Shown: piece after piece, positions 51,239 to 63,945 of the stretch | Numbering within the stretch: position 1 is the first letter of the stretch | Layout: every line of letters starts with the position of its first letter | Source of the DNA: an uncultured Bdellovibrionales bacterium | Lineage (GTDB): Bacteria; Patescibacteriota; Minisyncoccia; Moranbacterales; UBA1568 | Assembly (NCBI GenBank): GCA_964384235.1 | Contig: CAYLJX010000003.1 | Span: 72,389-136,388, forward strand | Length of the DNA: 64,000 bases | Direction: 5' to 3' | Program-made: the position numbers and the translations under genes | Notes under the pieces: generated by a model | Seen by the model: only the letters and a program-made list of their open reading frames with translations | Databases searched by the model: none | Told to the model about the DNA's origin: nothing

Positions 51239-51451
51239 CTCCTCACTCTTTTGTTGAAAAAACTTCCCCCATCCCCTGACGCTGCAGAAGACTCTCCATC
51301 CTATACCAGAAACGCTTTTTTGTCACGTCATAACAACAAAAGACCTGAAAAACCAGGTCTTTTCTTTAGAGCTCTTTCAGCCACCACGTTCGCACCTGGT
51401 TCGAATCCCGCGATCCCGAATTCATGGAGGTCATTCGCCAGATCCGGACGA

Positions 51452-51640
51452 TCAAAGCCATGGTGGAGGAGGCGGCTCATAGGGAGGCTCTCCCGGTTTC
51501 GGCGCTTTGTGAGACAAGAGCCAGAAGAGGTTCAGGAGCTCGAGGTACCGGCCCTTCGCCTCGGCGAAAGAAAGCACTTCGTCATAGTCCGCTTCCATTC
51601 TCGCACGGAAGCGGTCGATTGTCTCATCGGTGATCTGCAT
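51452..51640 (-). CDS. Small hypothetical protein (62 aa) with a Pro-rich tail
   Basis: Helical composition; no Shine-Dalgarno sequence seen. Confidence 0.25.
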   Translation of the reverse strand: MQITDETIDRFRARMEADYDEVLSFAEAKGRYLELLNLFWLLSHKAPKPGEPPYEPPPPPWL

Positions 51641-51830: not shown

Positions 51831-52610
51831 TCAAGTCTTGGGGTATTCCGCATTGCACTCTTGCCGCAGGCGAGCACGTTCCGTGTCTTGGACCGGCCGC
51901 TCAATAGTGCTTCGAAGCGTCGCACGCATCCATGCACCCGGACCGAAGAGCTGTGATGGACTGGAACAGGAAATCGGAAGGCGCACACCTCGTACGACGC
52001 CGTCCTCGGCTATGAACTGGAGATCGCCAAGCTGGCCACGGCTTTCTTCTACGTTAAGAACCTCCGGTCGACCAACTATGACATAGCCGGGAGGAGCATC
52101 AAAAGCCACCACGTCTGATTGCGAGTGCCCCCCTCCACCTACGCCTGCTCCCTCGCATCTCACTTGGTTTCGAACCTCTTGTGTCTTGCGATCTTGAAAA
52201 CGAGCTACGGAGCCAGCAAGGCACTCTGCGATCTTGGCGTTTCGGTGTTCAGCAGCGTGCTGAGCCTCTTTTGCAGCGTCGAAGACTGCGTAGCCAAGGA
52301 CACATACGCCACCGAAGATGAGCACGAAGGCACCCATCTTCACGCCCCAGTGCTCTTTGCCAAAGAAGAGCCATGCCAGGAGACCGACTATGCATGCCAG
52401 CAGTGCCAAGACCCCAAGGGGTGTTTTGATCGCTGCTTCGAAGACTCTCGGGAACTGCTCAACAAGTGTTTGCAACATCCATTCCTCCCGATATCGAACT
52501 CGATCGATGACGTTCTGGTGCGCATCGCGAAATGTTTCCAATCGTGGCAATGTGCCGCCTAGGCGCGACTCGCTTCCCACGACAGAGCGCATAGCCAGCG
52601 ATTGCGACAC
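51831..52610 (-). CDS. Hypothetical 2-TM membrane protein downstream of SGNH-like paralog 1
   Basis: ..LGVLALLACIVGLLAWLFFGKEHWGVKMGAFVLIFGGVCVLGYAVF.. TM hairpin. Confidence 0.4.
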   Translation of the reverse strand: MSQSLAMRSVVGSESRLGGTLPRLETFRDAHQNVIDRVRYREEWMLQTLVEQFPRVFEAAIKTPLGVLALLACIVGLLAWLFFGKEHWGVKMGAFVLIFGGVCVLGYAVFDAAKEAQHAAEHRNAKIAECLAGSVARFQDRKTQEVRNQVRCEGAGVGGGGHSQSDVVAFDAPPGYVIVGRPEVLNVEESRGQLGDLQFIAEDGVVRGVRLPISCSSPSQLFGPGAWMRATLRSTIERPVQDTERARLRQECNAEYPKT

Positions 52611-52679
52611 TCATCCCGACCTCACAAGGAAGCATCGGTGCAGTGCGCCACGCGATCACTGATCTGTTTGGGCGACGTC

Positions 52680-53489
52680 TCACACTGCGATCGCGAGTTC
52701 CTTCAAGGTGTCGATCCAGCGTTCATTCACGATCCGCTGGAATCCCTCTCTCGTTGGGTGGAGCTCGTTGTCCCAGTCTTCGAGGTAGTTCGGGGAAACA
52801 AGACATCCGCGTGAATTGACCAAGTAGATTCGTTTGCCCGGATCCGCAAACTGCGAAAACTCCTCGGCGAGGCGGTCGATGAGGATGCGACAGATCTTCC
52901 GGCGGAGATCGGGGTCGTTCGGAACCTGTCGTTCGTCCATGGCCGGAGCGAGCCACGGCCCCGTTATCTTCAACGTCTCAAGTTTGAAGCCCCGTCCATC
53001 CGGGATGGGATAGTCGTAGGAGTGGAGGATGACGGCCGGGTGAAGCCCCTGTTTTCCGGCGGCACGCCAGACTTGATGGGTCATGGCGCCAAGGGCGGTA
53101 CCCAGTCGTCCCATCAGGGCATCCATCGCCGCCTCCTCGATACAGTCTTCCGGCGTTTGCGCTTTGGAGCAATTCCTTTTCAGCCCAAGCCCGTAATCGA
53201 CCGCATCGTTTCCTGCACCACCGATTCGGACAAACGAATAGTAGGGCATGTTCTCTGGTCGCAGTTCCCAAGCGAACTGTTTCGCGTACCTGCCGAAGAC
53301 GTACTCCTCCAGCTTGGCGCCGATGTACCCGAGCGACTGGATCTGACGATACGGATCCTGGACGCGCGGATGGGTCGCAATCGCGTAGAGGAGGTTGCTC
53401 TTCGGATACCAGAACCAGGAGTCTCCGATTGCCAGAAGTGCGGGAAATTCGCCGGGAAGCCACTGCTCGCCGGGCGCATAGATTTTCAT
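52680..53489 (-). CDS. GDSW-motif SGNH-hydrolase-like protein, paralog 1
   Basis: LLAIGDSWFWY (block I Ser), GGAGND (block III), WDNELHP (block V His); paralogous to 62572..63420. Confidence 0.65.
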   Translation of the reverse strand: MKIYAPGEQWLPGEFPALLAIGDSWFWYPKSNLLYAIATHPRVQDPYRQIQSLGYIGAKLEEYVFGRYAKQFAWELRPENMPYYSFVRIGGAGNDAVDYGLGLKRNCSKAQTPEDCIEEAAMDALMGRLGTALGAMTHQVWRAAGKQGLHPAVILHSYDYPIPDGRGFKLETLKITGPWLAPAMDERQVPNDPDLRRKICRILIDRLAEEFSQFADPGKRIYLVNSRGCLVSPNYLEDWDNELHPTREGFQRIVNERWIDTLKELAIAV

Positions 53490-53664
53490 GCTGGTCTTCA
53501 GACTCTTTGGATCGTCAGCGATCCAGTCTTTCCGTGATTCTTCGGCGGCTTTTGCATGCTTGCGTCCCTCTAGCGTAGTAACAGACGGTTAGTGACGGTA
53601 ACCAAGGTACTTCACTGATCCCCGCCGAACCGACGACGACAAAAGGGGTTGTAAGTCAACCACG

Positions 53665-55068
53665 TCACTTTGAAGTCAATCCCGCTTCCGTCATGAACTT
53701 GACGATCCGGGCCGCTGTGAGTGCTTCGTTGTAACCAAGCCTATCCTGAAACCGATTGAAGCCTTGGACGTGAATGCCGATAACCGCCCCGTCTGATAGA
53801 TCAAAAATTGGGCTGCCCGAGTTTCCGCCAGACGTGTTGGCCTTGTGCACGAACATTCCCTCATCAGTGACCTTTTTTCCCCCAGTAAAGCCACCTGAGA
53901 GCCGCTTGAACGGAAACTGGGGCGCCAACTTGTCGGGTGTTCTGAAGAACTCCACTTGTTCCGCAACGGTCATATCGTCGGGAGGTCCCGGATAGCCCAT
54001 GACCGCCACAATCATGTTCCCGGCGTATGCAGCATTAGGTCTTTCCGCAAGCGTGAGGCTTTTCGGAAACTGCTGATCGGTCGAAGTAAGGAGTATGGCC
54101 ATGTCATCTCGAGAACCTTTAGGCACTGCGTGGACTGCATTCAGAAAATATGAACGCTCCTTGTTGGGCTCCTCGCAAGCATTGTCCTTACCCAATGGGT
54201 ACTCGACGTCAAAATAGACCTTCGCTCCAGGGCGAATCTTCCAAAGATTCTTCTGTTCATCATACTGAGCAATACTTTTGAGCACGTGTAGGTTTGTAAT
54301 CAGATGATTCGATCCCACGACGAAGCCTGATCCTGCTGGACGATCGTCAAGCATTATCAGACCTACGCTTCTCCCGGCCCGAACGAGTGCGTCTTTATGA
54401 GATGAAATTGTCTTACTCCACTCCAATGGGTCTTTGGGCGCCCAGAGTTGCTCCTTGCAGACAAGGAAATAGGGATTTGAGAGCGCTGCAAACGACTCAG
54501 CAACAGCCGGCGATATTCCCTTAATCTGACCCAAAACAAATTCTCGTGCCCGTTGCTTCGTTGAAATTGCCGTGTTGATAGCGGAGAGCGCCACATTGTT
54601 GGCTGGCGTCTTCGGCTCGACGGCGTTAAGCTGCGCCAGCTCTACCTGCAACTGATCGATCTCCGATTCGATTACAGCGAGTAGCGCTTGTCTCTGCGCG
54701 GGACTTTGTTGTTCCAGCGATTCTTCCAAAGACTGAGGCGTCACGGTCCCGGAACGCGATGCCGGTGTCTTCGACAGATCACCGTTGGAACCAACGAGTG
54801 GTGCGCCAGGCAGCTTTCGAGGAATCGACTGGCTGACTAGTCGAAGTTCCACATCGCTTATTTCGCGGGCACGACTAACGGATTCCACGGTGGCGCGCCT
54901 GAGGGCGTCGCCTAAGAGGTCGCCAAAGAGATCTCCCGCTTGGACGCTCGACGTTCCTAAGGCAATCGAGCACAGTAGCAGTAGACCTTTCTCAAACCTA
55001 GGACGATTGATGTTGCGATTCATTTCGGTGGCCGGCGCGCAGCTAGTTTGTTCGTACCCGTTTTTCAT
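53665..55068 (-). CDS. Secreted trypsin-like (S1, chymotrypsin-fold) serine protease with an N-terminal coiled-coil region
   Basis: Signal peptide; ..GSGFVVGSNHLITNLHV.. (His), ..DMAILL.. (Asp), ..GNSGSPIFD.. (Ser). Confidence 0.8.
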   Translation of the reverse strand: MKNGYEQTSCAPATEMNRNINRPRFEKGLLLLCSIALGTSSVQAGDLFGDLLGDALRRATVESVSRAREISDVELRLVSQSIPRKLPGAPLVGSNGDLSKTPASRSGTVTPQSLEESLEQQSPAQRQALLAVIESEIDQLQVELAQLNAVEPKTPANNVALSAINTAISTKQRAREFVLGQIKGISPAVAESFAALSNPYFLVCKEQLWAPKDPLEWSKTISSHKDALVRAGRSVGLIMLDDRPAGSGFVVGSNHLITNLHVLKSIAQYDEQKNLWKIRPGAKVYFDVEYPLGKDNACEEPNKERSYFLNAVHAVPKGSRDDMAILLTSTDQQFPKSLTLAERPNAAYAGNMIVAVMGYPGPPDDMTVAEQVEFFRTPDKLAPQFPFKRLSGGFTGGKKVTDEGMFVHKANTSGGNSGSPIFDLSDGAVIGIHVQGFNRFQDRLGYNEALTAARIVKFMTEAGLTSK

Positions 55069-55105
55069 GAAGGCATCTTGCGCACCCTGTCGCTAATGCG
55101 GGGAC

Positions 55106-56239
55106 CTAGTCCAATGGAATACGTTTGAAGTGCGTTTCGGCAATCGCAACGCCGACGTTTTTGATAGTCCCCGCGCTGTCGCCCTCTGTCACACGATACA
55201 TTGCGACTATCCCACCAGCGGCATATAGCCGGTCACTTCGCCAGATGCTAGTCGTCTTGAGGGAAGAACCGCCCTTGGAGAGCACTTTGAGCGTGAGAGA
55301 CCGCCCCGATGCCACCTTTAGGTGTTGATCAACAACTTCCCCCACAAGGACGGAAAGCAGCAGTGGCTTTTTCGTTGCAGCGTCGACAGTTGTGAGGCGG
55401 GTTGCAAAATCGTCCACTTGTTTGATGAGTGCGTCAGCCTTCTCCTTCTTGTTCTTGTCAGCGCTCGCGGCGACGAGCGCACTGCGACGCACGAGCAGCG
55501 CCTCGAGGTTCTTCCTAAAATCCGATGTAATCTTCCCAGAAATGATGCCATCCACGGTACCCGTCGGGTACAGAACTTTTGCTTTGAGCTTGAATACGAC
55601 ATAGTCAAACAGCAACTCGTCAGGAACCGCTGCGTCCCCGAACGCCAAACTCTTATCGGTCCGCACAATCTGAGTCAATTGTGCCGCTTGCATCAGAACT
55701 GCTCCTAGCGTGACAATTGGAAGAGGGCCCTCCGGTATAGCTTCTAGTTTGACTTTGCCCAATAGCGATTCCACCCCCCTTGCGGTGCGTTCGAGCGTCG
55801 CTTTCTCGTCCCAGTAAAGCAACAATGCCACTCGATCCGTGTCAGTCATCAGGACACATGTCGCTTCGCAGTCTTTCTCGACCGCTGTCGCAATTTGGGC
55901 CGCCACCTGCGCAAACGACTCTGCTGCTCGAGCACTGACGTGGAACTTGTCGCGCTCACTGGCTTCTATCGTGAGTGATCCTTTCTTGCCAAATCCGTCT
56001 GGCAGTGCCGGATACTCGTTCTTGATTAAGGAAGCCTGTGCTTCCAATAGGTCGCTCTCGGCCTTGATCAAGGCCTTCTTGTCATTTAGGTCGTCGATGG
56101 CTGCTTGATGCGGATTTACTTGGTCCGCTGCACTACTTGCCACCGGGAAGACAACGAAGAAGACTAGAAGAAGATTCTTCGGCCAGGTTTCCAATACCCA
56201 CCTTGCCCCAGTTGCAAACACAGTTGGACAGTTCTTCAT
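55106..56239 (-). CDS. Secreted hypothetical protein (377 aa)
   Basis: Signal peptide ..LLLVFFVVFPVASSAADQ; no recognised domain. Confidence 0.55.
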   Translation of the reverse strand: MKNCPTVFATGARWVLETWPKNLLLVFFVVFPVASSAADQVNPHQAAIDDLNDKKALIKAESDLLEAQASLIKNEYPALPDGFGKKGSLTIEASERDKFHVSARAAESFAQVAAQIATAVEKDCEATCVLMTDTDRVALLLYWDEKATLERTARGVESLLGKVKLEAIPEGPLPIVTLGAVLMQAAQLTQIVRTDKSLAFGDAAVPDELLFDYVVFKLKAKVLYPTGTVDGIISGKITSDFRKNLEALLVRRSALVAASADKNKKEKADALIKQVDDFATRLTTVDAATKKPLLLSVLVGEVVDQHLKVASGRSLTLKVLSKGGSSLKTTSIWRSDRLYAAGGIVAMYRVTEGDSAGTIKNVGVAIAETHFKRIPLD

Positions 56240-56607: not shown

Positions 56608-57174
56608 TCACACCATCCCTCGCTCCGCCAGACTCACCACGTCCGTCCCCGCCACCACGAAGTGATCGAGGACCTTCACATCGACAAGTCCAAGCGCCTG
56701 CTTCAAGGCACTCGTCAGCAGCTCATCCGCCCGGCTCGGTTCGGAAACGCCAGAAGGATGGTTGTGGGCGAAGATGAGAGCGGCAGCGTTGTGCCGGAGG
56801 GCCCGCTTGACGATCTCCCTTGGATACACCGACGTCTGGCTCAAGGTGCCTCGGAAGAGTTCTTCCGAAGCGATGAGGCGGTTCTGGGCATCCAAGAAGA
56901 GCGTGAGGAACGACTCGTACTCCTGAGCAACGAAATATGCCAGGAGGTAGCGCTTCACGTGCTCCGGCGAGGTGAGGAGGATCTCCTCTCGCCGCAGGTC
57001 TTCGTAGAGGAGCCGCGTGACCAACTCCTTGGCGACCTGAAGTCGCCGCTGTGCGCTCGTCCTCGCTTCGCCCGCAAAGAGCGGCACGAGACTTCCCTGA
57101 TACAACTTCTCTGCCGCCTTCGCCCCTATGAGCCTCTCCAGCAACTCGCGGTCGCTGGCCTTCTGCATGTCCAT
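56608..57174 (-). CDS. radC: RadC-like JAB-domain protein
   Basis: N-terminal helix-hairpin-helix-like region and C-terminal ..[16 protein letters not shown].. JAMM motif. Confidence 0.85.
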
Positions 57175-57311
57175 GGCAATGGTCTCCTTCTAGAGTAAAG
57201 AACCAATTCCATCGTCATGCATGCGGCATCTCTCGCGTAGGCTTGGAAACGTGCCAAGCTGACACGTTCTCCCGTCTCCGCCCAGGAGCGTCTCTCCCCT
57301 ACCGTGGGAAG

Positions 57312-58505
57312 ATGGACTTCTCTCACGATATCGCGCTCTTCGCCCGGACCAATGCCAGGCGAAGCTTCCAGCCCTTCGGCCTCCGTCAGGCCGACCGCCT
57401 GTTTCACCTGTATGCCATAGGGAAGACGGGAACGGGCAAGTCGACCCTCCTCGAGACGCTCGCCCTTCAGGACATGCGCGCGGGCCGCGGATTGGCCGTC
57501 ATCGATCCCCATGGCGACTTGGTGCTACGCCTCAAGAAGGCGATGCCGCCCTCGCGCCGAGACGATCTGCTTTTCTTCGACGTCCCGGATGTCTCCCAAG
57601 CCTTCGGCTACAACCCGCTGCGCAAGGTGCGGCCCGACAAGATTCCCCTGGCCGCCTCGGGACTCCTGGAGGCCTTCAAGAAGCTCTGGACGGATGCCTG
57701 GGGCGTACGCATGGAGCATGTCCTGCGCAATGCTCTCTTCGCGCTCCTCGAATACGGAGAGGCGACCCTTCCGGACATCCTTCGCCTCATGACGGACAAC
57801 GCCTTCCGATACCGCGTGTCAGCGACGCTCACCAACGAACAGGTGAAGGCCTTCTGGCAGAACGAGTTCCCCAAGTACCACCCTCGCTACCGCCAGGAGA
57901 GCATCGCTCCCATCCAGAACAAGGTCGGCGCCTTCCTGGCCGATCCCAGGCTCTACCGGATCTTCACGGCTCCTCCCGTCGATCTGCGTTTCCGCAGAGT
58001 CATGGACGAGGGGAAGATCCTCCTCGTCAATCTCTCCAAGGGACAACTCGGCGAAGACAGCGCCTCGCTCCTCGGGGCTCTCCTCGTCACGACGCTCTCC
58101 TTGGCGGCCTTCTCCCGGGCGGATATGCCGGAAGCGGAGCGGAAGCCTTTCTTCATCTTCGTCGACGAATTTCAGTCGTTCACGACCCTTTCGGTGGCCG
58201 GGATGATCTCGGAATTGCGTAAGTACAACGTGGGGCTCGTCCTCGCCAACCAGCACCTCCACCAGCTCGAGCCCGATGTCCGGCACGCGGTCCTGGGGAA
58301 CGTGGGAACGCTCGTCGTCTTCCGGGTCGGCCCTGAGGATGCCCGCTTCCTCGCCCATGAGTTCGAGGGAAGCTTCTCGCCCTTCGACCTCATGAGCCTC
58401 GCCAACCATGACATCTACCTTCGCCTCATAATCGACGGGACTCCCAGCCCGCCCTTCAGCGCGACCACCATCAAGCCAGATGATCTTGATCGCTTGAGGA
58501 TGTGA
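57312..58505 (+). CDS. TrwB/TraD (type IV coupling protein)-like P-loop ATPase of the FtsK-HerA superfamily, soluble form
   Basis: Walker A YAIGKTGTGKSTLLETL followed by VIDPHGD (compare TrwB GATGTGKSVLL...VIVDPNGD); Walker B FFIFVDEFQSF; ..VGLVLANQHLHQL.. sensor; no N-terminal TMs. Confidence 0.75.
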   Translation: MDFSHDIALFARTNARRSFQPFGLRQADRLFHLYAIGKTGTGKSTLLETLALQDMRAGRGLAVIDPHGDLVLRLKKAMPPSRRDDLLFFDVPDVSQAFGYNPLRKVRPDKIPLAASGLLEAFKKLWTDAWGVRMEHVLRNALFALLEYGEATLPDILRLMTDNAFRYRVSATLTNEQVKAFWQNEFPKYHPRYRQESIAPIQNKVGAFLADPRLYRIFTAPPVDLRFRRVMDEGKILLVNLSKGQLGEDSASLLGALLVTTLSLAAFSRADMPEAERKPFFIFVDEFQSFTTLSVAGMISELRKYNVGLVLANQHLHQLEPDVRHAVLGNVGTLVVFRVGPEDARFLAHEFEGSFSPFDLMSLANHDIYLRLIIDGTPSPPFSATTIKPDDLDRLRM

Positions 58506-58551
58506 GGCGCATACTCTCATGCGCTTTCCATAGGTTTCAGAGGGGGGGGAC

Positions 58552-59064
58552 ATGGGACACGCCAAGCCGACGGAGATCTTGTCGCACTGGAACACCCGCG
58601 TCGACGGCATGCAGCAGTCGTCCCACGAGTTTTACGGAGCGGTCGAACGCACCCTCGATACGCATAGTCTCAAGGACTACAAGACAGAGCGCGTGAACAT
58701 CTCGGAAGGCGGCATCTTCTCCTCGAAGCGCGAGTACCTCCAGGTGCGCCGCGCCGACATCGTCTTCCACATCTGCGCTGCGCCGTATGGCAACGGCTTC
58801 TTCCTCTCCTGGTGGCTCGGACGGATCGAGTCGGGCTTCTGGGCCTGGATCTCCGACATTCCGGTGATCGGCATGCTCGCGCAGAATTTCTTGAAACCCC
58901 TCACCTACTACAAGCTCGACACCGCCGCGATGTTCCAAGGCGTGGTCCATTCCGTCGTCCTCGAAGTCCTCGACGGCCTGACGACGGAGAAGGGCATCCG
59001 GGCGCTGGCTGAGAGCGAACGGAGGCCCGTCATGCGCGACTTCTTCGCCCGCCTCGGAGGCTAA
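58552..59064 (+). CDS. Hypothetical protein (170 aa) between the two ATPases
   Basis: Protein-like ORF with one Trp-rich hydrophobic segment. Confidence 0.45.
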   Translation: MGHAKPTEILSHWNTRVDGMQQSSHEFYGAVERTLDTHSLKDYKTERVNISEGGIFSSKREYLQVRRADIVFHICAAPYGNGFFLSWWLGRIESGFWAWISDIPVIGMLAQNFLKPLTYYKLDTAAMFQGVVHSVVLEVLDGLTTEKGIRALAESERRPVMRDFFARLGG

Positions 59065-59079
59065 CGCCGGTCTCCGAGC

Positions 59080-62000
59080 ATGTCCGGCCTCTCGCCTGCG
59101 GAAATCATCACCACGAGCTTCTATGCGTGGGAGGTACGCGGGCGCGGGTGGCAGGTAGCGGACTATCCCGTCTGCCTTGAGCCGCCGTTTCGGCATTGCT
59201 TCGTCCTGCCCGATCTCGTCGCGGAAACGAAGCCGATCGATGACGGAAAACGGCCGACGTTCCTCAGTTCCGTGGTCGAGGGCCTGCGGAGCGCCTTCGC
59301 GCTCGACGCCACCCCTGCGCCCGAGCCCGCCCCACCGTACGAGGAACCAGCCCCCTATCCGGCACTTGCGTCCGGACCGCTCACCGCGTTTTGCGTGACG
59401 GTGCCGATGGATCACAAGAGCCATCCGGAAACGACAATCCGCCTTCTCGTCGCGCTGTCGACCTGCTGCTTCCCCGTGTCCCTCGAACTCATCGGCTGCG
59501 AAGGCCAGGTCATCATCCAACTGGTCTGCGCCGACACCGACCAGGCGCATGTGGCCGCGCAGTGCCTCGCCTACCTTCCCGACGCTGCGGTCATCGAAAC
59601 CGAGGACCTCCTTGCGAGCGTCTGGGATCGACGGCGGGAGCACGCCGTCGTCGATTTCGGGCTCTCTCAGGAATTCTTTCTGCCGTTTGATGGACTGAAG
59701 AGCCAGAAGCTCGACCCGTACCTCTCCCTTGTTCCCTCCCTCGCCAGGGCGGATCGAGACGAGGCGATCCTCCTACAGGTCCTCTTCCAAGGCGTCCAGA
59801 ATCCGTGGGGCAAGGCTATCCGCGACGCCCTCGATGATGGCCAGGGCGGTTCTGTGTTCGCGGACGCCCCAGCATTTCCCCGGCTGGCCGATGAGAAGCT
59901 GAAGACCTCCCTCTTTGCCGTCTCGGTCCGTGTCGCCGCACAGGCACAGGAGGCGGAACGAGCGTGGCACTTGGCCCGTTCGACCGGCGCCTTTTTCCTC
60001 CAATTGGGCCGACCCGGAGCCAATGAACTCCTCCCGCTTGAGAACGACGGCTACCGAGAGGATCTTCATGTCGAAGCCATCCTCACGCGGCAGTCGTACC
60101 GCCTTGGGATGATCCTCTCGGCCGACGAGTTGGCGGCGCTCGCCCATCTTCCCGATGCCGCGGTCCGTCATCCGTCCCTCACGCGGGAGGAGCGGCGGAC
60201 GAAGCCTCTTCCCGTCGAAGCCTCCGGACATCCCCATGTCCTCGGCGAAAACCAGCACCGCGGGAAGATGTCCGTCGCGTCGCTCAGTGATGGGCAGCGG
60301 CTCCAGCACACCTGGATAGTCGGCGCCTCCGGGACGGGAAAGTCGACGCTTCTCCTGAACCTCATCACTGAGGACATTCGGCTCGGTCATGGTGTCGCGG
60401 TGCTGGATCCGCACGGCGACCTGATCGACGACATCTTGGCGCGGGTGCCAGACAGCCGCACGAGCGATGTCATCGTCTTCGACCCGAGCGATACTGAGTG
60501 GCCCATCGGATTCAATATCTTCTCAGCCGGAAGCGAGGGCGAGCGGGCGCTCTTGGCTGCCGATCTCGTCGGGATCTTCCGGCGGTTCTCGACATCTTGG
60601 GGCGACACCATGAGCGCGGTGCTCGGGAACGCGGTCCTCGCGATCCTCGAGCACCCGCAGGGTGGGACGCTGCTCGACCTCAGGCGGCTCCTCGTCGATG
60701 AGCGCTTCCGCCGCGCGTACCTGGAGGACGTGGCGGACGAGGAGGTCGCCTTCTTCTGGTCGCGCGAGTACCCCGTGATCGGCTCACGTTCGATCGGCCC
60801 GATCCTGACCCGGCTTGACACCTTCCTGCGGCCCAAGGTCATTCGGCATATCGTCGGACAGCCGGATGGGAAGCTCCATTTCTCCGACGTCATGGCGTCG
60901 AAGCGCATCTTTCTCGCGAAGCTCTCCCATGGCCTCATCGGCGAGGAGAATGCCTACCTCCTCGGCAGCCTCATCGTGGGAAAGTTTCTCGGACTCGCGC
61001 TCGCGCGGCAGCAGCTCGCGAAGGATGAACGCGCCGCCTTCTTCCTGTATGCCGACGAGTTTCAGCACTTCCTCACGCCCTCCATGGAAACGCTGCTCAC
61101 GGCGGCGCGAAAGTACGCGCTTGGGGCAACGCTCGCCCATCAGACGATGGCGCAGCTCCGGGACTCGCCCAAGGTGGAAGGCGCGCTTCTCGGCAACGCC
61201 TACACGCGCATCGTCTTCCGAACCGGGGAAAGCGATGCGCGGCAGCTGGCCGAGGGGTTTTCCTTCTTTGAGGGGCGCGACATCCACGGTCTGGGACGGG
61301 GCGAGGCGATCGCCCGGCTCGGATCGAGCGGAAATGACTTCAACCTGAAAACGCTGCCGCTCCCCGGCGTGCCGCCTGGGGCGGAGGAGCGGCGCTCCCA
61401 GATCATCTTCCGCTCGCGCGAGCGCTACGGGACGCCGATCGAAGCGCTGCGGGCGCTCCTCGGGGCACGGTACAGAGCAAGCGAGGAACCGGCCGAAGCG
61501 AAGCCGAGGCCGCCGCTCGAGGAGGCACCGCCCGCGCTCTCGGGTGCGGGAGAGCCGATCGCCGCTTCCTGTGAGACACCACGGGCAAGCGTTCCGGAAC
61601 CAAAGACCGGTGAGCAACTGATGGCGCGCCGGGTACCGATCAATGTCGCAGCGGTCACCCCGGGACGGGGCGGGCAGGAGCACAAATACCTCCAGCACCT
61701 CGTGAAACGCTTGGCCGAAGAGCGCGGTTTCCGCGCCACGATTGAAGAGGCCGCGGGAGATGGCCGGGCAGACGTGGTACTGAGCAAGAGTACGCAGCGA
61801 ATCGCCTGCGAGATCTCAGTGACGACGGACCATATCCACGAGGAAGAGAACTTGAGGAAGTGCCTCGCGGCCGGATTCGAACAGATCGTCTTTGTCGTAC
61901 CCGACCGGAAACGAAGGGAGAAACTGAAAGGACATTTTCAGGAGATTGCCGGAATCGACTCGTTGGCGGTGATATCGACGGAGGAGATCGTCGCGTACCT

Positions 62001-62160
62001 CGACGGGCTGGATACCGGATCGGCCGTGGCCGAATCGACCGTGCGAGGCTACAAGGTGAAAGTCACGCGGCAGACGGTCTCGCCAGAGGAGCTGGCCGGA
62101 AGGCGCTCGGCCATCGCCGAGGTGATCGCCCGGTCGCTCCTCAAACACAAGGACGTTTGA
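59080..62160 (+). CDS. Large TrwB/HerA-like ATPase fused to an unknown N-terminal domain and a C-terminal Hjc/restriction-endonuclease-like (PD-(D/E)xK fold) domain
   Basis: Walker A WIVGASGTGKSTLLLNL..VLDPHGD, Walker B FFLYADEFQHF, paralogous to 57312..58505; the C-terminus ..LVKRLAEERGFRATIE..GDGRADVVL..RIACEISVT resembles the Hjc ..KGFAVVR..PDIIA..IEVKS pattern. Confidence 0.75.
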   Translation: MSGLSPAEIITTSFYAWEVRGRGWQVADYPVCLEPPFRHCFVLPDLVAETKPIDDGKRPTFLSSVVEGLRSAFALDATPAPEPAPPYEEPAPYPALASGPLTAFCVTVPMDHKSHPETTIRLLVALSTCCFPVSLELIGCEGQVIIQLVCADTDQAHVAAQCLAYLPDAAVIETEDLLASVWDRRREHAVVDFGLSQEFFLPFDGLKSQKLDPYLSLVPSLARADRDEAILLQVLFQGVQNPWGKAIRDALDDGQGGSVFADAPAFPRLADEKLKTSLFAVSVRVAAQAQEAERAWHLARSTGAFFLQLGRPGANELLPLENDGYREDLHVEAILTRQSYRLGMILSADELAALAHLPDAAVRHPSLTREERRTKPLPVEASGHPHVLGENQHRGKMSVASLSDGQRLQHTWIVGASGTGKSTLLLNLITEDIRLGHGVAVLDPHGDLIDDILARVPDSRTSDVIVFDPSDTEWPIGFNIFSAGSEGERALLAADLVGIFRRFSTSWGDTMSAVLGNAVLAILEHPQGGTLLDLRRLLVDERFRRAYLEDVADEEVAFFWSREYPVIGSRSIGPILTRLDTFLRPKVIRHIVGQPDGKLHFSDVMASKRIFLAKLSHGLIGEENAYLLGSLIVGKFLGLALARQQLAKDERAAFFLYADEFQHFLTPSMETLLTAARKYALGATLAHQTMAQLRDSPKVEGALLGNAYTRIVFRTGESDARQLAEGFSFFEGRDIHGLGRGEAIARLGSSGNDFNLKTLPLPGVPPGAEERRSQIIFRSRERYGTPIEALRALLGARYRASEEPAEAKPRPPLEEAPPALSGAGEPIAASCETPRASVPEPKTGEQLMARRVPINVAAVTPGRGGQEHKYLQHLVKRLAEERGFRATIEEAAGDGRADVVLSKSTQRIACEISVTTDHIHEEENLRKCLAAGFEQIVFVVPDRKRREKLKGHFQEIAGIDSLAVISTEEIVAYLDGLDTGSAVAESTVRGYKVKVTRQTVSPEELAGRRSAIAEVIARSLLKHKDV

Positions 62161-62571: not shown

Positions 62572-63420
62572 ATGCCGCAAGCCATCGTCCTTACGCCGTC
62601 GCAACTGGAAAATCCCGACCTCGGGCAACCGCATCGGTGGGAGTTCTTCGACCGACATTACCTGGCCGAAGGAGATTCGTGGTTCACTTTGGCAGCGCTC
62701 CCCGGCGGAAACCTTCTCCAGGAGCTGCATCTACAGCGATCGTCACTGGTTATCAATACCGCCTCCCCGGGAGACACGCTCTCCCATATCGTCGAATGGC
62801 GCCAAAACCGCCCGTTTGTAAAGCTACTGTCCGAACGCAAGTTTGCACAAAAATGGGATGGGGTGCTCCTGAGCGCGGGCGGCAATGACCTCATTGATGC
62901 CGCAATTTCTCGAGACGGCATCCTCCGCCGTCCGAGCCCGACGGCAACCACCGCAGGTGAGTGCATTCACGATGAGAATCTTGAATTATTGAAACGCCAT
63001 CTGTCGTTCCATCTTGAACAGATCATAGAACTCCGCGACGCTCGGAAGAGCCCCAACCAGGGCATACCGGTCTTTCTCCACACGTACGACTATCCCACTG
63101 CGAGGCCGGCGCCCGCGAAGCTCGTTGGCGTGGTAGGCGTTTCCGGACCGTGGCTGCATCGCGCGTACACAGAACACCATATCCCCGATGCATTATGGTC
63201 ACCTTTGACAGAGCATCTGATCGACTGGCTGGCCAGATTGCTTCAGGAACTGAAGCTTCCAAATGTAACCGTTATCGATACGAGAGGGACACTCGAGCGA
63301 GCTGCTGCGGGAACAACTGGAGACAGCGGTGACTGGCTCAACGAGATCCATGCGAATCAAGGCGGCCGGAAGAAGCTTGCGAAACGGTGGGCGCAGGACT
63401 TGCATCGCATTGTCGGATAG
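62572..63420 (+). CDS. GDSW-motif SGNH-hydrolase-like protein, paralog 2
   Basis: YLAEGDSWFT, SAGGNDL, HTYDYP, GPWL, WLNEIHAN, parallel to paralog 1; start taken at MPQAIV with a GGAAGG Shine-Dalgarno. Confidence 0.65.
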   Translation: MPQAIVLTPSQLENPDLGQPHRWEFFDRHYLAEGDSWFTLAALPGGNLLQELHLQRSSLVINTASPGDTLSHIVEWRQNRPFVKLLSERKFAQKWDGVLLSAGGNDLIDAAISRDGILRRPSPTATTAGECIHDENLELLKRHLSFHLEQIIELRDARKSPNQGIPVFLHTYDYPTARPAPAKLVGVVGVSGPWLHRAYTEHHIPDALWSPLTEHLIDWLARLLQELKLPNVTVIDTRGTLERAAAGTTGDSGDWLNEIHANQGGRKKLAKRWAQDLHRIVG

Positions 63421-63462: not shown

Positions 63463-63945
63463 TTGGAAGAGGAAGTCGATATGACAGAAGACGATCACAA
63501 ACGCGAGCGTGAATCGTTTGCGGCCATCATCGAGAGTCTTGAGAAATCAGTGAGGGCACACCGTACAGGCATAGATGGCTGGCTGTACAACGGCGGGACC
63601 GTCGTTACCCTGGTCTTGATGGCGACCGTCTCGATTCTGTCCGGGAAAATCTTCCCGACGGACACGTTTGCAGAATGGATGGCACCAATGCTTTCGGCGA
63701 CGGCGGGCCTGGTCGTCGCGCTCGAACGGTCATTGGGATTTGGGCAACGTTGGCGGTTTCACACCGAGATGAAAGCAGGCTATGTCACTGTGATTGACAT
63801 GATCCAGTTCTACTTTGCGCTTCCTCAGGATGAGCTAGAACAACGTGCCAAGCTCCGTGTGGAAATTTGGCAGTCATTGAACGCATTGCGCAGTCGTGAA
63901 TCGGCTATACCCAACTCCGGTGGAGCCGTATCCGGTGGAGCCTGA
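63463..63945 (+). CDS. Small 2-TM protein with SLATT/DUF4231-like architecture
   Basis: N-terminal helix, TM hairpin (VVTLVLMATVSILSG / MLSATAGLVVALE), then ..FGQRWRFHTEMKAGY.. helix typical of SLATT effectors; inference only. Confidence 0.4.
   Translation: MEEEVDMTEDDHKRERESFAAIIESLEKSVRAHRTGIDGWLYNGGTVVTLVLMATVSILSGKIFPTDTFAEWMAPMLSATAGLVVALERSLGFGQRWRFHTEMKAGYVTVIDMIQFYFALPQDELEQRAKLRVEIWQSLNALRSRESAIPNSGGAVSGGA

Follow-up and report, generated by a model that had tools for sequence, protein, structure and literature searches.

The window, that is, the whole 64,000-nt stretch of DNA analysed here, contains two adjacent minus-strand genes, here called SGNH1 and TM1, which are situated on the left edge of a mobile island of about 22 kb (Table 1). 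The left edge of this island was located by comparison with independent metagenome contigs, which match the window at 99.9-100% identity as far as positions 51361-51369 and then continue in at least two other contexts. A perfect hairpin with an 11-bp stem (AAAAGACCTGG-TTTT-TCAGGTCTTTT) abuts and partly overlaps the junction. It is followed by the remnant of a large serine recombinase gene; this stretch is identical to the 3'-terminal ~88 codons of a gene for 588 aa, of which contigs L011 and L014 contain an intact copy. A serine recombinase gene also resides at the far end of the island. Scans of the island edge for tRNAs and Rfam families returned nothing; a tRNA-like GGTTCGAATCC string at the junction does not represent a tRNA gene. 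The idea that L011 is the circularised island, with its left and right ends joined, was discarded as well, as no match to the right end was detectable.

Table 1. Features at the left end, in the core and on the opposite arm of the island (window coordinates).
Feature	Position	Strand	Basis
Perfect 11-bp stem hairpin	51338..51363	-	abuts, partly overlaps junction
Left junction of mobile island	51361..51369		comparison with independent metagenome contigs
Large serine recombinase remnant	51369..51633	+	identity to last ~88 codons of 588-aa gene
TM1, probably 215 aa, two-helix TM hairpin and 4-Cys beta-sandwich domain	51831..52478	-	homologues, model
SGNH1-TM1 intergenic spacer, 201 nt	52479..52679	-	probable TM1 start
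SGNH1, 269-aa SGNH/GDSL-fold serine esterase	52680..53489	-	homologues, motif alignment, AF2, Foldseek
Terminator-like hairpin	53647..53661	-	directly after peptidase stop codon; consensus scan only
Trypsin-like serine peptidase, 467 aa	53665..55068	-	Trypsin_2, E 4.7e-14
p377, 377-aa protein with signal-peptide-like N-terminus	55106..56239	-	sequence
Island core between two arms	56608..62160		profile searches, contig comparison
RadC	56608-57174	-	
TrwB/TraD-like ATPase	57243/57312-58505	+	
170-aa protein	58552-59064	+	
1026-aa TrwB-like ATPase with C-terminal extension	59080-62160	+	
SGNH2, 282-aa SGNH1 paralogue	62572..63420	+	in-window tblastn, homologues
TM2, 154-aa two-TM protein, divergent SLATT-like	63481..63945	+	profile matches

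The SGNH1 reading frame is present as initially annotated and encodes the motif set GDSWFW, GxxGA, GGAGND, HSYDYP, GPWL and DWDNELHP, which includes the Ser, Asn and His blocks recognized earlier (GDSWF, GGAGND and NELHP). The AF2 model of the protein (pLDDT 90.5, pTM 0.88) was compared with the PDB using Foldseek. The top 50 matches were almost all SGNH or GDSL-type esterases or acyltransferases (probability 1.0), with GDSL esterases and PAF-AH scoring at E-values of 5e-7 to 1e-4. Alignment of 34 family sequences including SGNH2 revealed that residues G22-D23-S24-W25 of block I, G57 of block II and G93-N94-D95 of block III, both of which contribute to the oxyanion hole, and H244 of block V, embedded in W239-x-N241-E242-x-H244, are invariant. 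The sole departure is at position His-3, where the SGNH1 family and SGNH2 carry an invariant Asn (NExH, that is NELH or NEIH) rather than the canonical Asp, meaning that the triad acid of the DxxH motif usual in the SGNH/GDSL superfamily is absent from both. Distant relatives in Rhizobium and Mesorhizobium retain DELH/DEIH, and a fusion protein of Geminocystis has NELH. Since dyad-type SGNH enzymes exist, Asn at this position is by itself no argument for inactivity. The SGNH fold and the invariant Ser, Gly, Asn and His blocks thus suggest that SGNH1 is probably catalytically competent, as had been proposed.

The SGNH1 family additionally shares a Cys-x8-Cys motif, and no signal peptide is apparent from the SGNH1 sequence. 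Searches of SGNH1 against Pfam and NCBIfam yielded nothing significant and no GDSL match, while precomputed PF13472 matches exist for some homologues. The database holds at least 384 homologues (E-values down to 1e-184), and a collection of species-representative genomes contains 358 stretches that encode relatives. The family is compact (~270 aa), belongs mostly to Betaproteobacteria and occurs as a solitary gene in varied contexts, e.g. in Thauera, Cognatazoarcus and MAG loci.

The longest open reading frame of TM1 (51831..52610, minus strand) was found as initially annotated; it starts with GTG and encodes 259 aa, while gene callers place the start at 52592 (253 aa). The distance of 69 nt to SGNH1 reported previously applies to this longest frame. 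However, the true start is probably the ATG at position 52478, which is preceded by a GGGAGG Shine-Dalgarno sequence at a distance of 5 nt; all four full-length homologues begin at the equivalent ATG, and the N-terminal extension is unconserved. With this start, TM1 comprises 215 aa and the gap to SGNH1 widens to 201 nt. Within this spacer, a consensus scan predicted no terminator-like site on the minus strand. TM1 is composed of a short N-terminal tail, a tight transmembrane hairpin, a long helix and a 4-Cys beta-sandwich domain, which makes up the C-terminal half of the protein and is marked by the motifs VRCEGAG..G.G and PISCSSPSQxFGPGAWM. The structural model (pLDDT 84.8) bears out the tight hairpin noted before, with helices H20-39 and H45-94 (215-aa numbering) connected by a 5-residue loop. 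Foldseek retrieved no significant PDB match for TM1, and the scattered matches to H-type lectins or Ig-like folds were too weak (best E 0.035) for an assignment.

All four cysteines are invariant in the 12 TM1 homologues, and in seven of these the 4-Cys domain is furnished with a signal peptide (P0126-P0132), for which reason the corresponding 120-aa domain of TM1 is predicted to face the periplasm. TM1 does not resemble a pore former. It matched nothing significant in Pfam and NCBIfam, and specifically neither SLATT nor DUF4231 (Pfam at E-values up to 5; NCBIfam). No relatives of the TM1 family were found in the viral contig collection, and tblastn searches of plasmids with TM1 and TM2 yielded no match. 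As homologues and structure models are available for both, SGNH1 and TM1 are real genes and not chance open reading frames.

On the same strand, 175 nt upstream of SGNH1, lies the gene of the 467-aa trypsin-like peptidase, which forms a conserved pair with p377; in the related island L179 each is about 70% identical. As p377 does, the peptidase has an N-terminus that reads as signal-peptide-like (..GLLLLCSIALGTSSVQA|GD), whereas SGNH1 has none, suggesting that these two proteins and SGNH1 reside in different compartments. A profile search found no sensor domain in the peptidase. The terminator-like hairpin following the stop codon of its gene suggests that SGNH1 is not necessarily part of the peptidase transcript.

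The initial annotation further described a mirrored arrangement on the opposite arm. Indeed, a second SGNH gene followed by a two-TM protein gene is present. SGNH2 shares 27% identity with SGNH1 across 266 aa (E 1e-13), and its reading frame is open upstream to 62200, with the homologues setting the start at MPQAIV. The SGNH2 family is the larger one, with at least 880 homologues of about 283 aa, and SGNH2 scores 22.8 bits against PF13472, for which the threshold is 32.9. TM2 begins 60 nt after SGNH2 on the same strand. However, the mirror image does not extend to the membrane proteins, as TM1 and TM2 are not homologous to each other. TM2 matches SLATT_4 over nearly its full length (E 1.2e-4), albeit with 21.9 bits at a cut-off of 55. 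Within the TM2 family, 36 of 56 members match SLATT_4 and 33 match SLATT_1 (E<=0.01), while Pfam DUF4231 is hit by four. From these sub-threshold matches, TM2 resembles a divergent SLATT-like protein and is the only membrane protein of the two modules that resembles a known 2-TM effector family; it is unlinked to SGNH2 relatives elsewhere. SLATT proteins (SMODS and SLOG associating 2TM effector) are predicted pore formers of the membrane that operate in conflict systems, and their usual partners are reportedly SMODS, SLOG or TIR nucleotide-signalling genes. None of these was found among the genes of the island, and literature searches for SLATT together with SGNH or GDSL brought up no relevant work. 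The presence of a second SGNH paralogue and a second two-TM protein in one island is left as chance when the genes are regarded as independent cargo.

Recurrence of the two gene pairs was assessed at 79 genome and 80 metagenome loci that carry relatives of SGNH1 or SGNH2. Using tblastn and family HMMs, homologues of TM1 or TM2 were detected within +/-4 kb at none of these loci, and homologues of the 467-aa peptidase (tryp467) or p377 were likewise not found in their vicinity. The neighbourhoods are heterogeneous: the genes immediately downstream in 139 loci belong to 75 unrelated Pfam families, the commonest of which appears five times, and the commonest upstream family accounts for 5 of 137. 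No neighbour cluster extends to more than 8 of about 150 loci, and small same-strand two-TM neighbours are not enriched (2/139 downstream versus 3/137 upstream). Inspection of the TM1 family gave the same picture. One homologue (L015) stands alone and another (L182) follows an unrelated DUF7379 alpha/beta-hydrolase, in both cases with no SGNH gene. In one population (contig L014), SGNH1 is interrupted by a nonsense codon (W179*) and TM1 is intact and identical; that is, SGNH1 is dispensable while TM1 stays intact. The related island L179 lacks TM1 and retains only a 5'-truncated SGNH remnant elsewhere in the island. Thus, the pair of hydrolase and membrane effector envisaged by the initial annotation, for which co-occurrence of both families in other genomes was expected, is not borne out.

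As SGNH1 and TM1 occur side by side nowhere but in this mobile island, the most likely reading, to which we assign a probability of roughly 0.6, is that both are ordinary accessory genes carried independently as cargo, not a co-evolving two-component system. According to this interpretation, it would be by chance that the left arm ends with these two genes. In every contig with this island, p377, the peptidase, SGNH1 and TM1 nevertheless follow one another in the same order, and no terminator is predicted between the latter two, so that co-transcription and a local functional link may exist. In addition, of the three independent contexts in which TM1 is found, two have a serine hydrolase gene as the immediate upstream neighbour in the same orientation, namely SGNH1 here and the alpha/beta-hydrolase in L182.

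The alternative that SGNH1-TM1 and SGNH2-TM2 each constitute a two-gene module, e.g. an abortive infection or toxin unit whose esterase would sense or license a partner that disrupts the membrane, or vice versa, draws on the same-strand adjacency on both island arms, on the SLATT-like character of TM2 with its predicted pore-forming capacity, and on the mad8-like ATPases, which are defence-like genes carried by the island. Moreover, a 69%-identical relative of SGNH2 resides in a TIR/nSTAND/SLOG island, in front of a different, three-TM protein. We nonetheless consider this alternative improbable: neither pairing recurs in the roughly 160 loci of both SGNH families, TM1 and TM2 are unrelated, the conserved part of TM1 is a secreted-type beta domain rather than a pore former, SGNH1 can be lost by mutation with TM1 unchanged, and PADLOC models match none of the four proteins.

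A connection with proteolysis could be considered as well. Distant members of the SGNH subfamily, which share the motifs GDSWF, GGND, HxYxYP, GPWL and (D/N)E(L/I)H with SGNH1, are fused to Trypsin_2 in Geminocystis and to caspase C14 in Rhizobium and Sinorhizobium. The caspase fusion was verified in loci L184 and L192; further candidates are annotated as caspase family proteins, and Rhizobium and Sinorhizobium make up 9 of 20 plasmid matches. In Mesorhizobium the SGNH gene is located directly downstream of a gene for a Trypsin_2-EEP protein, and in Paraburkholderia it lies near a CHAT protease gene. At several such loci, the next genes encode wall hydrolases of the GH19, GH46, amidase or M15 type, which have no signal peptides. 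[quoted passage not shown] 2025, PMC12642450), and pairs of nucleases and proteases are also on record (PMC12799240). The main text of the former preprint makes no mention of SGNH (Evans et al. 2025, PMC12642450).

By analogy, p377, the peptidase, SGNH1 and perhaps TM1 might form an operon encoding a death or defence unit gated by proteolysis, the esterase being activated by the peptidase. The close same-strand position of the peptidase gene and the fusions and neighbourhoods of the distant members are consistent with this possibility, which we regard as improbable for several reasons. The proteins probably occupy different compartments, a terminator-like hairpin separates the genes, the peptidase has no fused sensor domain, and comparison with the peptidase domains of the fusion proteins revealed no specific kinship, as only the catalytic motifs match. 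No peptidase is among the 25 commonest upstream families (137 loci) and none is recurrent downstream (139 loci). Finally, the related island keeps p377 and the peptidase, with its SGNH remnant truncated and displaced. A broader proposal, marginally less unlikely in our view, is that the subfamily with GDSWF, GGND, HxYDYP, GPWL and (D/N)ExH might be an unrecognised class of envelope-directed death or defence effectors, recruited time and again by trypsin, caspase and CHAT peptidases in the company of wall hydrolases without signal peptides, with peptidase-SGNH1(-TM1) and SGNH2-SLATT as working versions. If real, the peptidase linkage would mean that the protease-gated effectors, of which more and more are being described, also include an esterase.

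It is very unlikely that SGNH1 and TM1 represent an effector-immunity pair, that is, an antibacterial toxin with lipase or esterase activity that is delivered by a specialised secretion system, and an immunity protein facing the periplasm. SGNH1 indeed lacks a signal peptide, the putatively extracytoplasmic TM1 domain with its conserved cysteines is encoded immediately downstream, the TM1 homologue in L182 follows another lipase-like hydrolase gene, and one relative of SGNH1 is flanked by a class-3 lipase and an M28 peptidase, while another comes after a type I secretion operon. However, the 139 loci share no conserved downstream gene and many homologues are placed between housekeeping genes, no vgrG, hcp, PAAR-type or other delivery gene was present in the neighbourhoods examined, and it would be unusual for a single immunity family to act on hydrolases of two unrelated folds. 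A lysis cassette, in which a small holin-like two-TM protein would release a wall- or membrane-active esterase devoid of a signal peptide, is the least probable alternative: both modules have a small two-TM protein downstream and distant SGNH members cluster with enzymes of the endolysin type (M15_3, GH19, amidase) that have no signal peptides, but the linkage is not conserved, a 120-aa periplasmic domain is atypical of holins, the viral contigs yielded no TM1 relatives, and no other phage lysis genes accompany SGNH1/TM1 or SGNH2/TM2.

Taken together, we favour the view that SGNH1 and TM1 are independent cargo. SGNH1 would be a soluble enzyme, either an esterase or a deacylase, in which Ser24 serves as nucleophile, Gly57 and Asn94 form the oxyanion hole, His244 is the base and Asn241 takes the place usual for Asp. 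As members of its family are single genes whose surroundings vary from locus to locus, it presumably works without a dedicated partner. Our best guess for its target is an acyl or acetyl ester of the cell envelope, e.g. on lipid or peptidoglycan, because distant subfamily members accompany peptidases and cell-wall hydrolases without signal peptides. TM1, a hairpin-anchored version of a 4-Cys beta-sandwich domain that is made elsewhere as a small secreted protein, would for this reason most likely sit in the inner membrane and present a putative binding domain to the periplasm. Thus, SGNH1-TM1 does not reveal a new two-component system, and mirrored gene order in one mobile island is weak evidence of a functional pair. 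Of note are two sizeable, entirely uncharacterised SGNH families (at least 384 and at least 880 database clusters) with distinctive motifs and Asn at the triad position, as well as a small orphan family of 4-Cys periplasmic domains and a divergent SLATT family, both devoid of annotation.

Several known systems invite comparison. TM2 resembles SLATT proteins in having two TM helices ahead of a conserved helical stretch, and sub-threshold SLATT_4 and SLATT_1 matches recur in most of its family, but the TM2 score stays far below the cut-off and TM1 has no SLATT similarity. The Tle-Tli systems of type VI secretion are pairs of a lipase effector and a periplasmic immunity protein, the effectors having GxSxG or PLD folds. 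SGNH1-TM1 likewise combines a signal-peptide-less esterase- or lipase-like enzyme with a small protein carrying a predicted extracytoplasmic domain, but differs in its SGNH fold and by the lack of delivery genes and of a conserved pairing. In protease-effector modules, a trypsin-like peptidase gene adjoins a hydrolase gene as it does here, and distant SGNH proteins are fused to trypsin or caspase; for the families in the window, the linkage is unconserved, and the peptidase is apparently secreted and without a sensor domain. SGNH1 itself compares with the SGNH/GDSL superfamily, exemplified by the GDSL esterase EstL5 of Geobacillus (7e16/8ik1), the alpha subunit of PAF acetylhydrolase Ib (1wab) and the peptidoglycan O-acetylesterase Ape1 (4k3u). 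SGNH1 has the fold in common with these enzymes (TM-score ~0.5 at 11-15% identity to solved structures) and possesses GDS of block I, Gly of block II, GxND of block III and His of block V, but is set apart by the additional invariant HxYDYP and GPWL motifs, Asn at His-3 and Cys-x8-Cys.

The initial annotation had described a hydrolase gene followed by a gene for a membrane protein, and a mirrored arrangement on the opposite arm of the island. Both open reading frames of the left arm are present as described and are genuine genes, designated SGNH1 and TM1. On the other arm, a paralogue of SGNH1 (SGNH2) precedes a protein with two hydrophobic helices (TM2), and this description was therefore accurate as well. 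The 69-nt gap between SGNH1 and TM1 holds for the longest ORF of TM1, but not for its most likely start, an ATG at 52478, which is preceded at a distance of 5 nt by a GGGAGG ribosome-binding site and would give a protein of 215 aa after a spacer of 201 nt. All full-length TM1 homologues (4/4) start at the equivalent MPxxLxEQFP, and their tblastn alignments with TM1 begin at this very residue.

Coordinates of the features (L-numbers denote fetched comparison loci; all other positions refer to the window)
Feature	Coordinates	Strand	Remarks
SGNH1, ORF	52680..53489	-	ATG start, 269 aa; GDSWF, GGAGND, DNELHP
SGNH1, Cys-x8-Cys	~53142-53171		residues 107 and 116
TM1, longest ORF	51831..52610	-	GTG start, 259 aa
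p377 and trypsin-like peptidase	53665-56239	-	counterpart L179:4641-7211
SGNH2	62572..63420	+	27% identity to SGNH1 over 266 residues (in-window tblastn, E 1e-13)
TM2	63481..63945	+	154 aa, two hydrophobic helices, after SGNH2
Serine recombinase, 3' stretch	51369-51633		identity to the gene in L011/L014
Junction hairpin region	51338-51369		perfect 11-bp hairpin next to the junction, in part overlapping it
TrwB/TraD-like ATPase pair	57243-62160	+
Backbone left of the island	23015-49887
SGNH1 with W179*	L014:2954-3763
SGNH1 remnant	L179:2846-3580
TM1 homologue after alpha/beta-hydrolase	L182:1-1582
SGNH2 relative	L180:8001-8852		island L180:1-12813
Peptidase-linked distant SGNH members	L183:1468-3456; L184:5722-7632; L188:2604-5735; L185:1438-6261; L192:5722-7638		tblastn against plasmids

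In the protein collection, 384 clusters are homologous to SGNH1, almost all of them unnamed and ~270 aa long. The Ser, Asn and His blocks, reported as retained in the initial annotation, are invariant in an alignment of 34 sequences, and catalytic competence is probable. Invariant positions comprise G22-D23-S24-W25, G57, G93-N94-D95, H156-x-Y158-D159-Y160, G177-x-W179 and W239-x-N241-E242-x-H244; position -3 relative to the catalytic His is occupied by an invariant Asn rather than Asp. Foldseek comparison of an AF2 model (pLDDT 90.5, pTM 0.88) with the PDB returned almost exclusively SGNH/GDSL enzymes, at a probability of 1.0, E-values of 5e-7 to 1e-4, a TM-score of ~0.5 and 11-15% identity; PatB, Ape1, PAF-AH Ib, lipases and the Geobacillus esterase EstL5 are among them. 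Judged by these motifs and structural matches, SGNH1 is an SGNH-fold hydrolase with a predicted intact nucleophile, oxyanion hole and base. Pfam and NCBIfam profiles yielded no match for SGNH1 and only sub-threshold matches for SGNH2; thus, the subfamily escapes curated profiles. An N-terminal signal sequence is absent from every SGNH1 family member, and the GDS block begins at residue 22. A Cys-x8-Cys pair is (nearly) invariant across the family although its proteins lack signal peptides; SGNH2 retains only the second Cys.

TM1 has 12 homologous clusters. Its AF2 model (pLDDT 84.8) starts with a short helix, after which two hydrophobic helices form a hairpin through a five-residue link, in line with the hairpin noted initially; a long helix, a beta-sandwich of ~100 residues and a C-terminal helix follow. 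The conserved portion of the family is the C-terminal domain, in which four cysteines are invariant and the motifs are VRCEGAG..G.G and PISCSSPSQxFGPGAWM. In seven of the 12 homologues (~150-195 aa) a signal-peptide-like N-terminus replaces the hairpin, which places this domain, by prediction, outside the cytoplasm. The proposed role as a membrane effector was not supported: no PDB structure matches the domain significantly (best E 0.035), Pfam and NCBIfam searches of TM1 gave no match, and the domain shows no likeness to known effectors of the pore-forming or SLATT type. A 60%-identical homologue (L015) has no SGNH gene nearby, and a 74%-identical one (L182) lies 68 nt after a DUF7379/Abhydrolase_8-type alpha/beta-hydrolase carrying ..VVAHSRGG.., which is not an SGNH protein. 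Of three independent contexts of TM1, two have a serine hydrolase directly upstream, and these two hydrolases differ in fold.

SGNH1 and TM1 had been proposed to form a hydrolase and membrane-effector pair, with co-occurrence of the two families as the suggested check. With each species represented by one genome, 358 stretches encoding relatives were found, almost all from Betaproteobacteria, and 79 loci with 4-kb flanks were kept; a metagenome scan with the SGNH2 family profile added 80 further loci. Across these loci, tblastn matched TM1 and TM2 only in copies of the same island, and family profile HMMs run against every ORF of at least 70 aa in all fetched loci had the same outcome. For both modules, the families therefore do not co-occur in these loci outside this island, which speaks against the proposed pair. 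SGNH1 homologues of 45-65% identity in Thauera sinica, Cognatazoarcus and several MAGs are solitary, with unrelated neighbours and no two-TM gene following. Clustering of neighbouring ORFs gave no family shared by more than 8 of ~150 loci, and among the largest clusters several occur solely in loci of Massilia and related Oxalobacteraceae, where they seem to reflect shared synteny. The nearest genes fall into 96 Pfam families upstream (n=137) and 75 downstream (n=139), the commonest, patatin upstream and TonB-dependent receptor downstream, occurring five times each. Small same-strand two-TM neighbours number 2/139 downstream versus 3/137 upstream.

Moreover, two variants within the island lineage break the SGNH1-TM1 pair. 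In one island population, a TGG-to-TAG change converts the invariant Trp179 of SGNH1 to a stop codon (W179*), while TM1 is 100% identical. The related island L179, whose RadC is 85% identical to that of the window, retains a 5'-truncated SGNH1 remnant (residues 76-269, 87% identical) without the GDS block, and TM1 is absent. The same-strand genes upstream of SGNH1, encoding a trypsin-like peptidase and a 377-aa protein (p377), both with signal-peptide-like N-termini, are kept in L179 at ~70% identity; over the same genome and metagenome loci, tblastn detected them only there and in copies of the island. The peptidase gene is followed by a terminator-like hairpin, and p377 and peptidase look like the true conserved unit of the left arm.

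Rightwards of 51361/51369, the window is matched at 99.9-100% identity by contigs from at least seven samples, which on the left diverge into two or more different contexts. Two of these contigs (L011 and L014) carry an intact gene for a 588-aa serine recombinase, whose 3' end is formed by the last 265 nt shared, and contigs reaching past the right end of the window continue for 10 kb to a 667-aa serine recombinase. The sharp left junction and these recombinases identify SGNH1 and TM1 as terminal cargo genes of a ~22-kb mobile island with a core of RadC and two TrwB/TraD-like ATPases. The ATPases are paralogous (38% identical over 357 aa), PADLOC mad8-like and separated by a 170-aa protein; on visual inspection, the 1026-aa ATPase ends in what looks like a PD-(D/E)xK nuclease. 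As the island has no other conjugation genes, the pair may be a defence or DNA-translocation module rather than a coupling protein. The backbone encodes GyrB, RecA, FtsK, a short RpoC (1196 aa), RpoB (1134 aa), an Amidase_2 protein and a lamin-tail/PKD protein. The RpoB and RpoC lengths are presumably not proteobacterial, and SGNH1/SGNH2 relatives are nearly all betaproteobacterial, which means that either the island was transferred between phyla or the contig is chimeric at 51361-51369.

In module 2, SGNH2 has 282 aa by homology, versus 388-406 aa for the longest ORF. The TM2 family (112 representative clusters) matches SLATT_4 (36/56 members) and SLATT_1 (33/56) in NCBIfam, always below the curated cut-offs; TM2 of the window reaches 21.9 bits where the cut-off is 55 and probably represents a divergent member of the SLATT proteins. 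SMODS, SLOG or TIR partners are absent from the island. Among the fetched loci, SGNH2 relatives elsewhere lack TM2 by tblastn and family HMMs. A 69%-identical relative (L180) resides within a TIR/nSTAND/SLOG island encoding an AAA protein and four TIR_2 proteins, three of which additionally carry nSTAND1, SLOG/LD_cluster2 or FGE-sulfatase, respectively, and precedes a 352-aa three-TM protein unrelated to TM2.

Searching plasmids with tblastn revealed distant SGNH members with 25-36% identity and the same motif set. In Geminocystis, such a protein is fused C-terminally to a Trypsin_2 domain (this fusion has neither Cys in the stretch matching Cys-x8-Cys); in Rhizobium and Sinorhizobium, members are fused N-terminally to a caspase (C14) domain, as verified for L184 and L192. 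Further matches in these two genera, which make up 9/20 plasmid records, are annotated as caspase family. A Mesorhizobium member lies directly downstream of a Trypsin_2-EEP protein, and in Paraburkholderia a CHAT protease precedes the SGNH member by ~1.4 kb. In several of these loci, wall hydrolases follow (GH19, GH46, amidase, MepA, YkuD-like or M15_3); the GH19, GH46, amidase, YkuD-like and M15_3 proteins whose N-terminus was read lack signal peptides. From the company of these relatives, an envelope-directed deacylase is a candidate function for SGNH1. The case for extending such protease linkage to the peptidase and SGNH1 of the window is weak, despite the fused or adjacent Trypsin_2, caspase and CHAT peptidases: the window peptidase is apparently secreted and SGNH1 cytoplasmic, its peptidase domain is not specifically related to those of the SGNH fusions, and the closer SGNH families show no recurrent peptidase linkage among 137 upstream and 139 downstream neighbours. 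Protease linkage thus stands as a rival, but unlikely, reading for the window.

Taken together, independent cargo is the best-supported reading. SGNH1 would be a solitary esterase that is probably active and belongs to an uncharacterised SGNH subfamily, and TM1 an unrelated, membrane-anchored periplasmic domain protein, the two presumably adjoining only at the edge of one mobile island. On this reading, SGNH1 is an enzyme of a known kind, and SGNH1 and TM1 do not constitute a new system. Among the distant relatives, fusion or proximity to peptidases resembles the protease-effector logic described for other effectors in a preprint whose main text makes no mention of SGNH proteins (PMC12642450), and these members could represent an undescribed protease-linked esterase effector.
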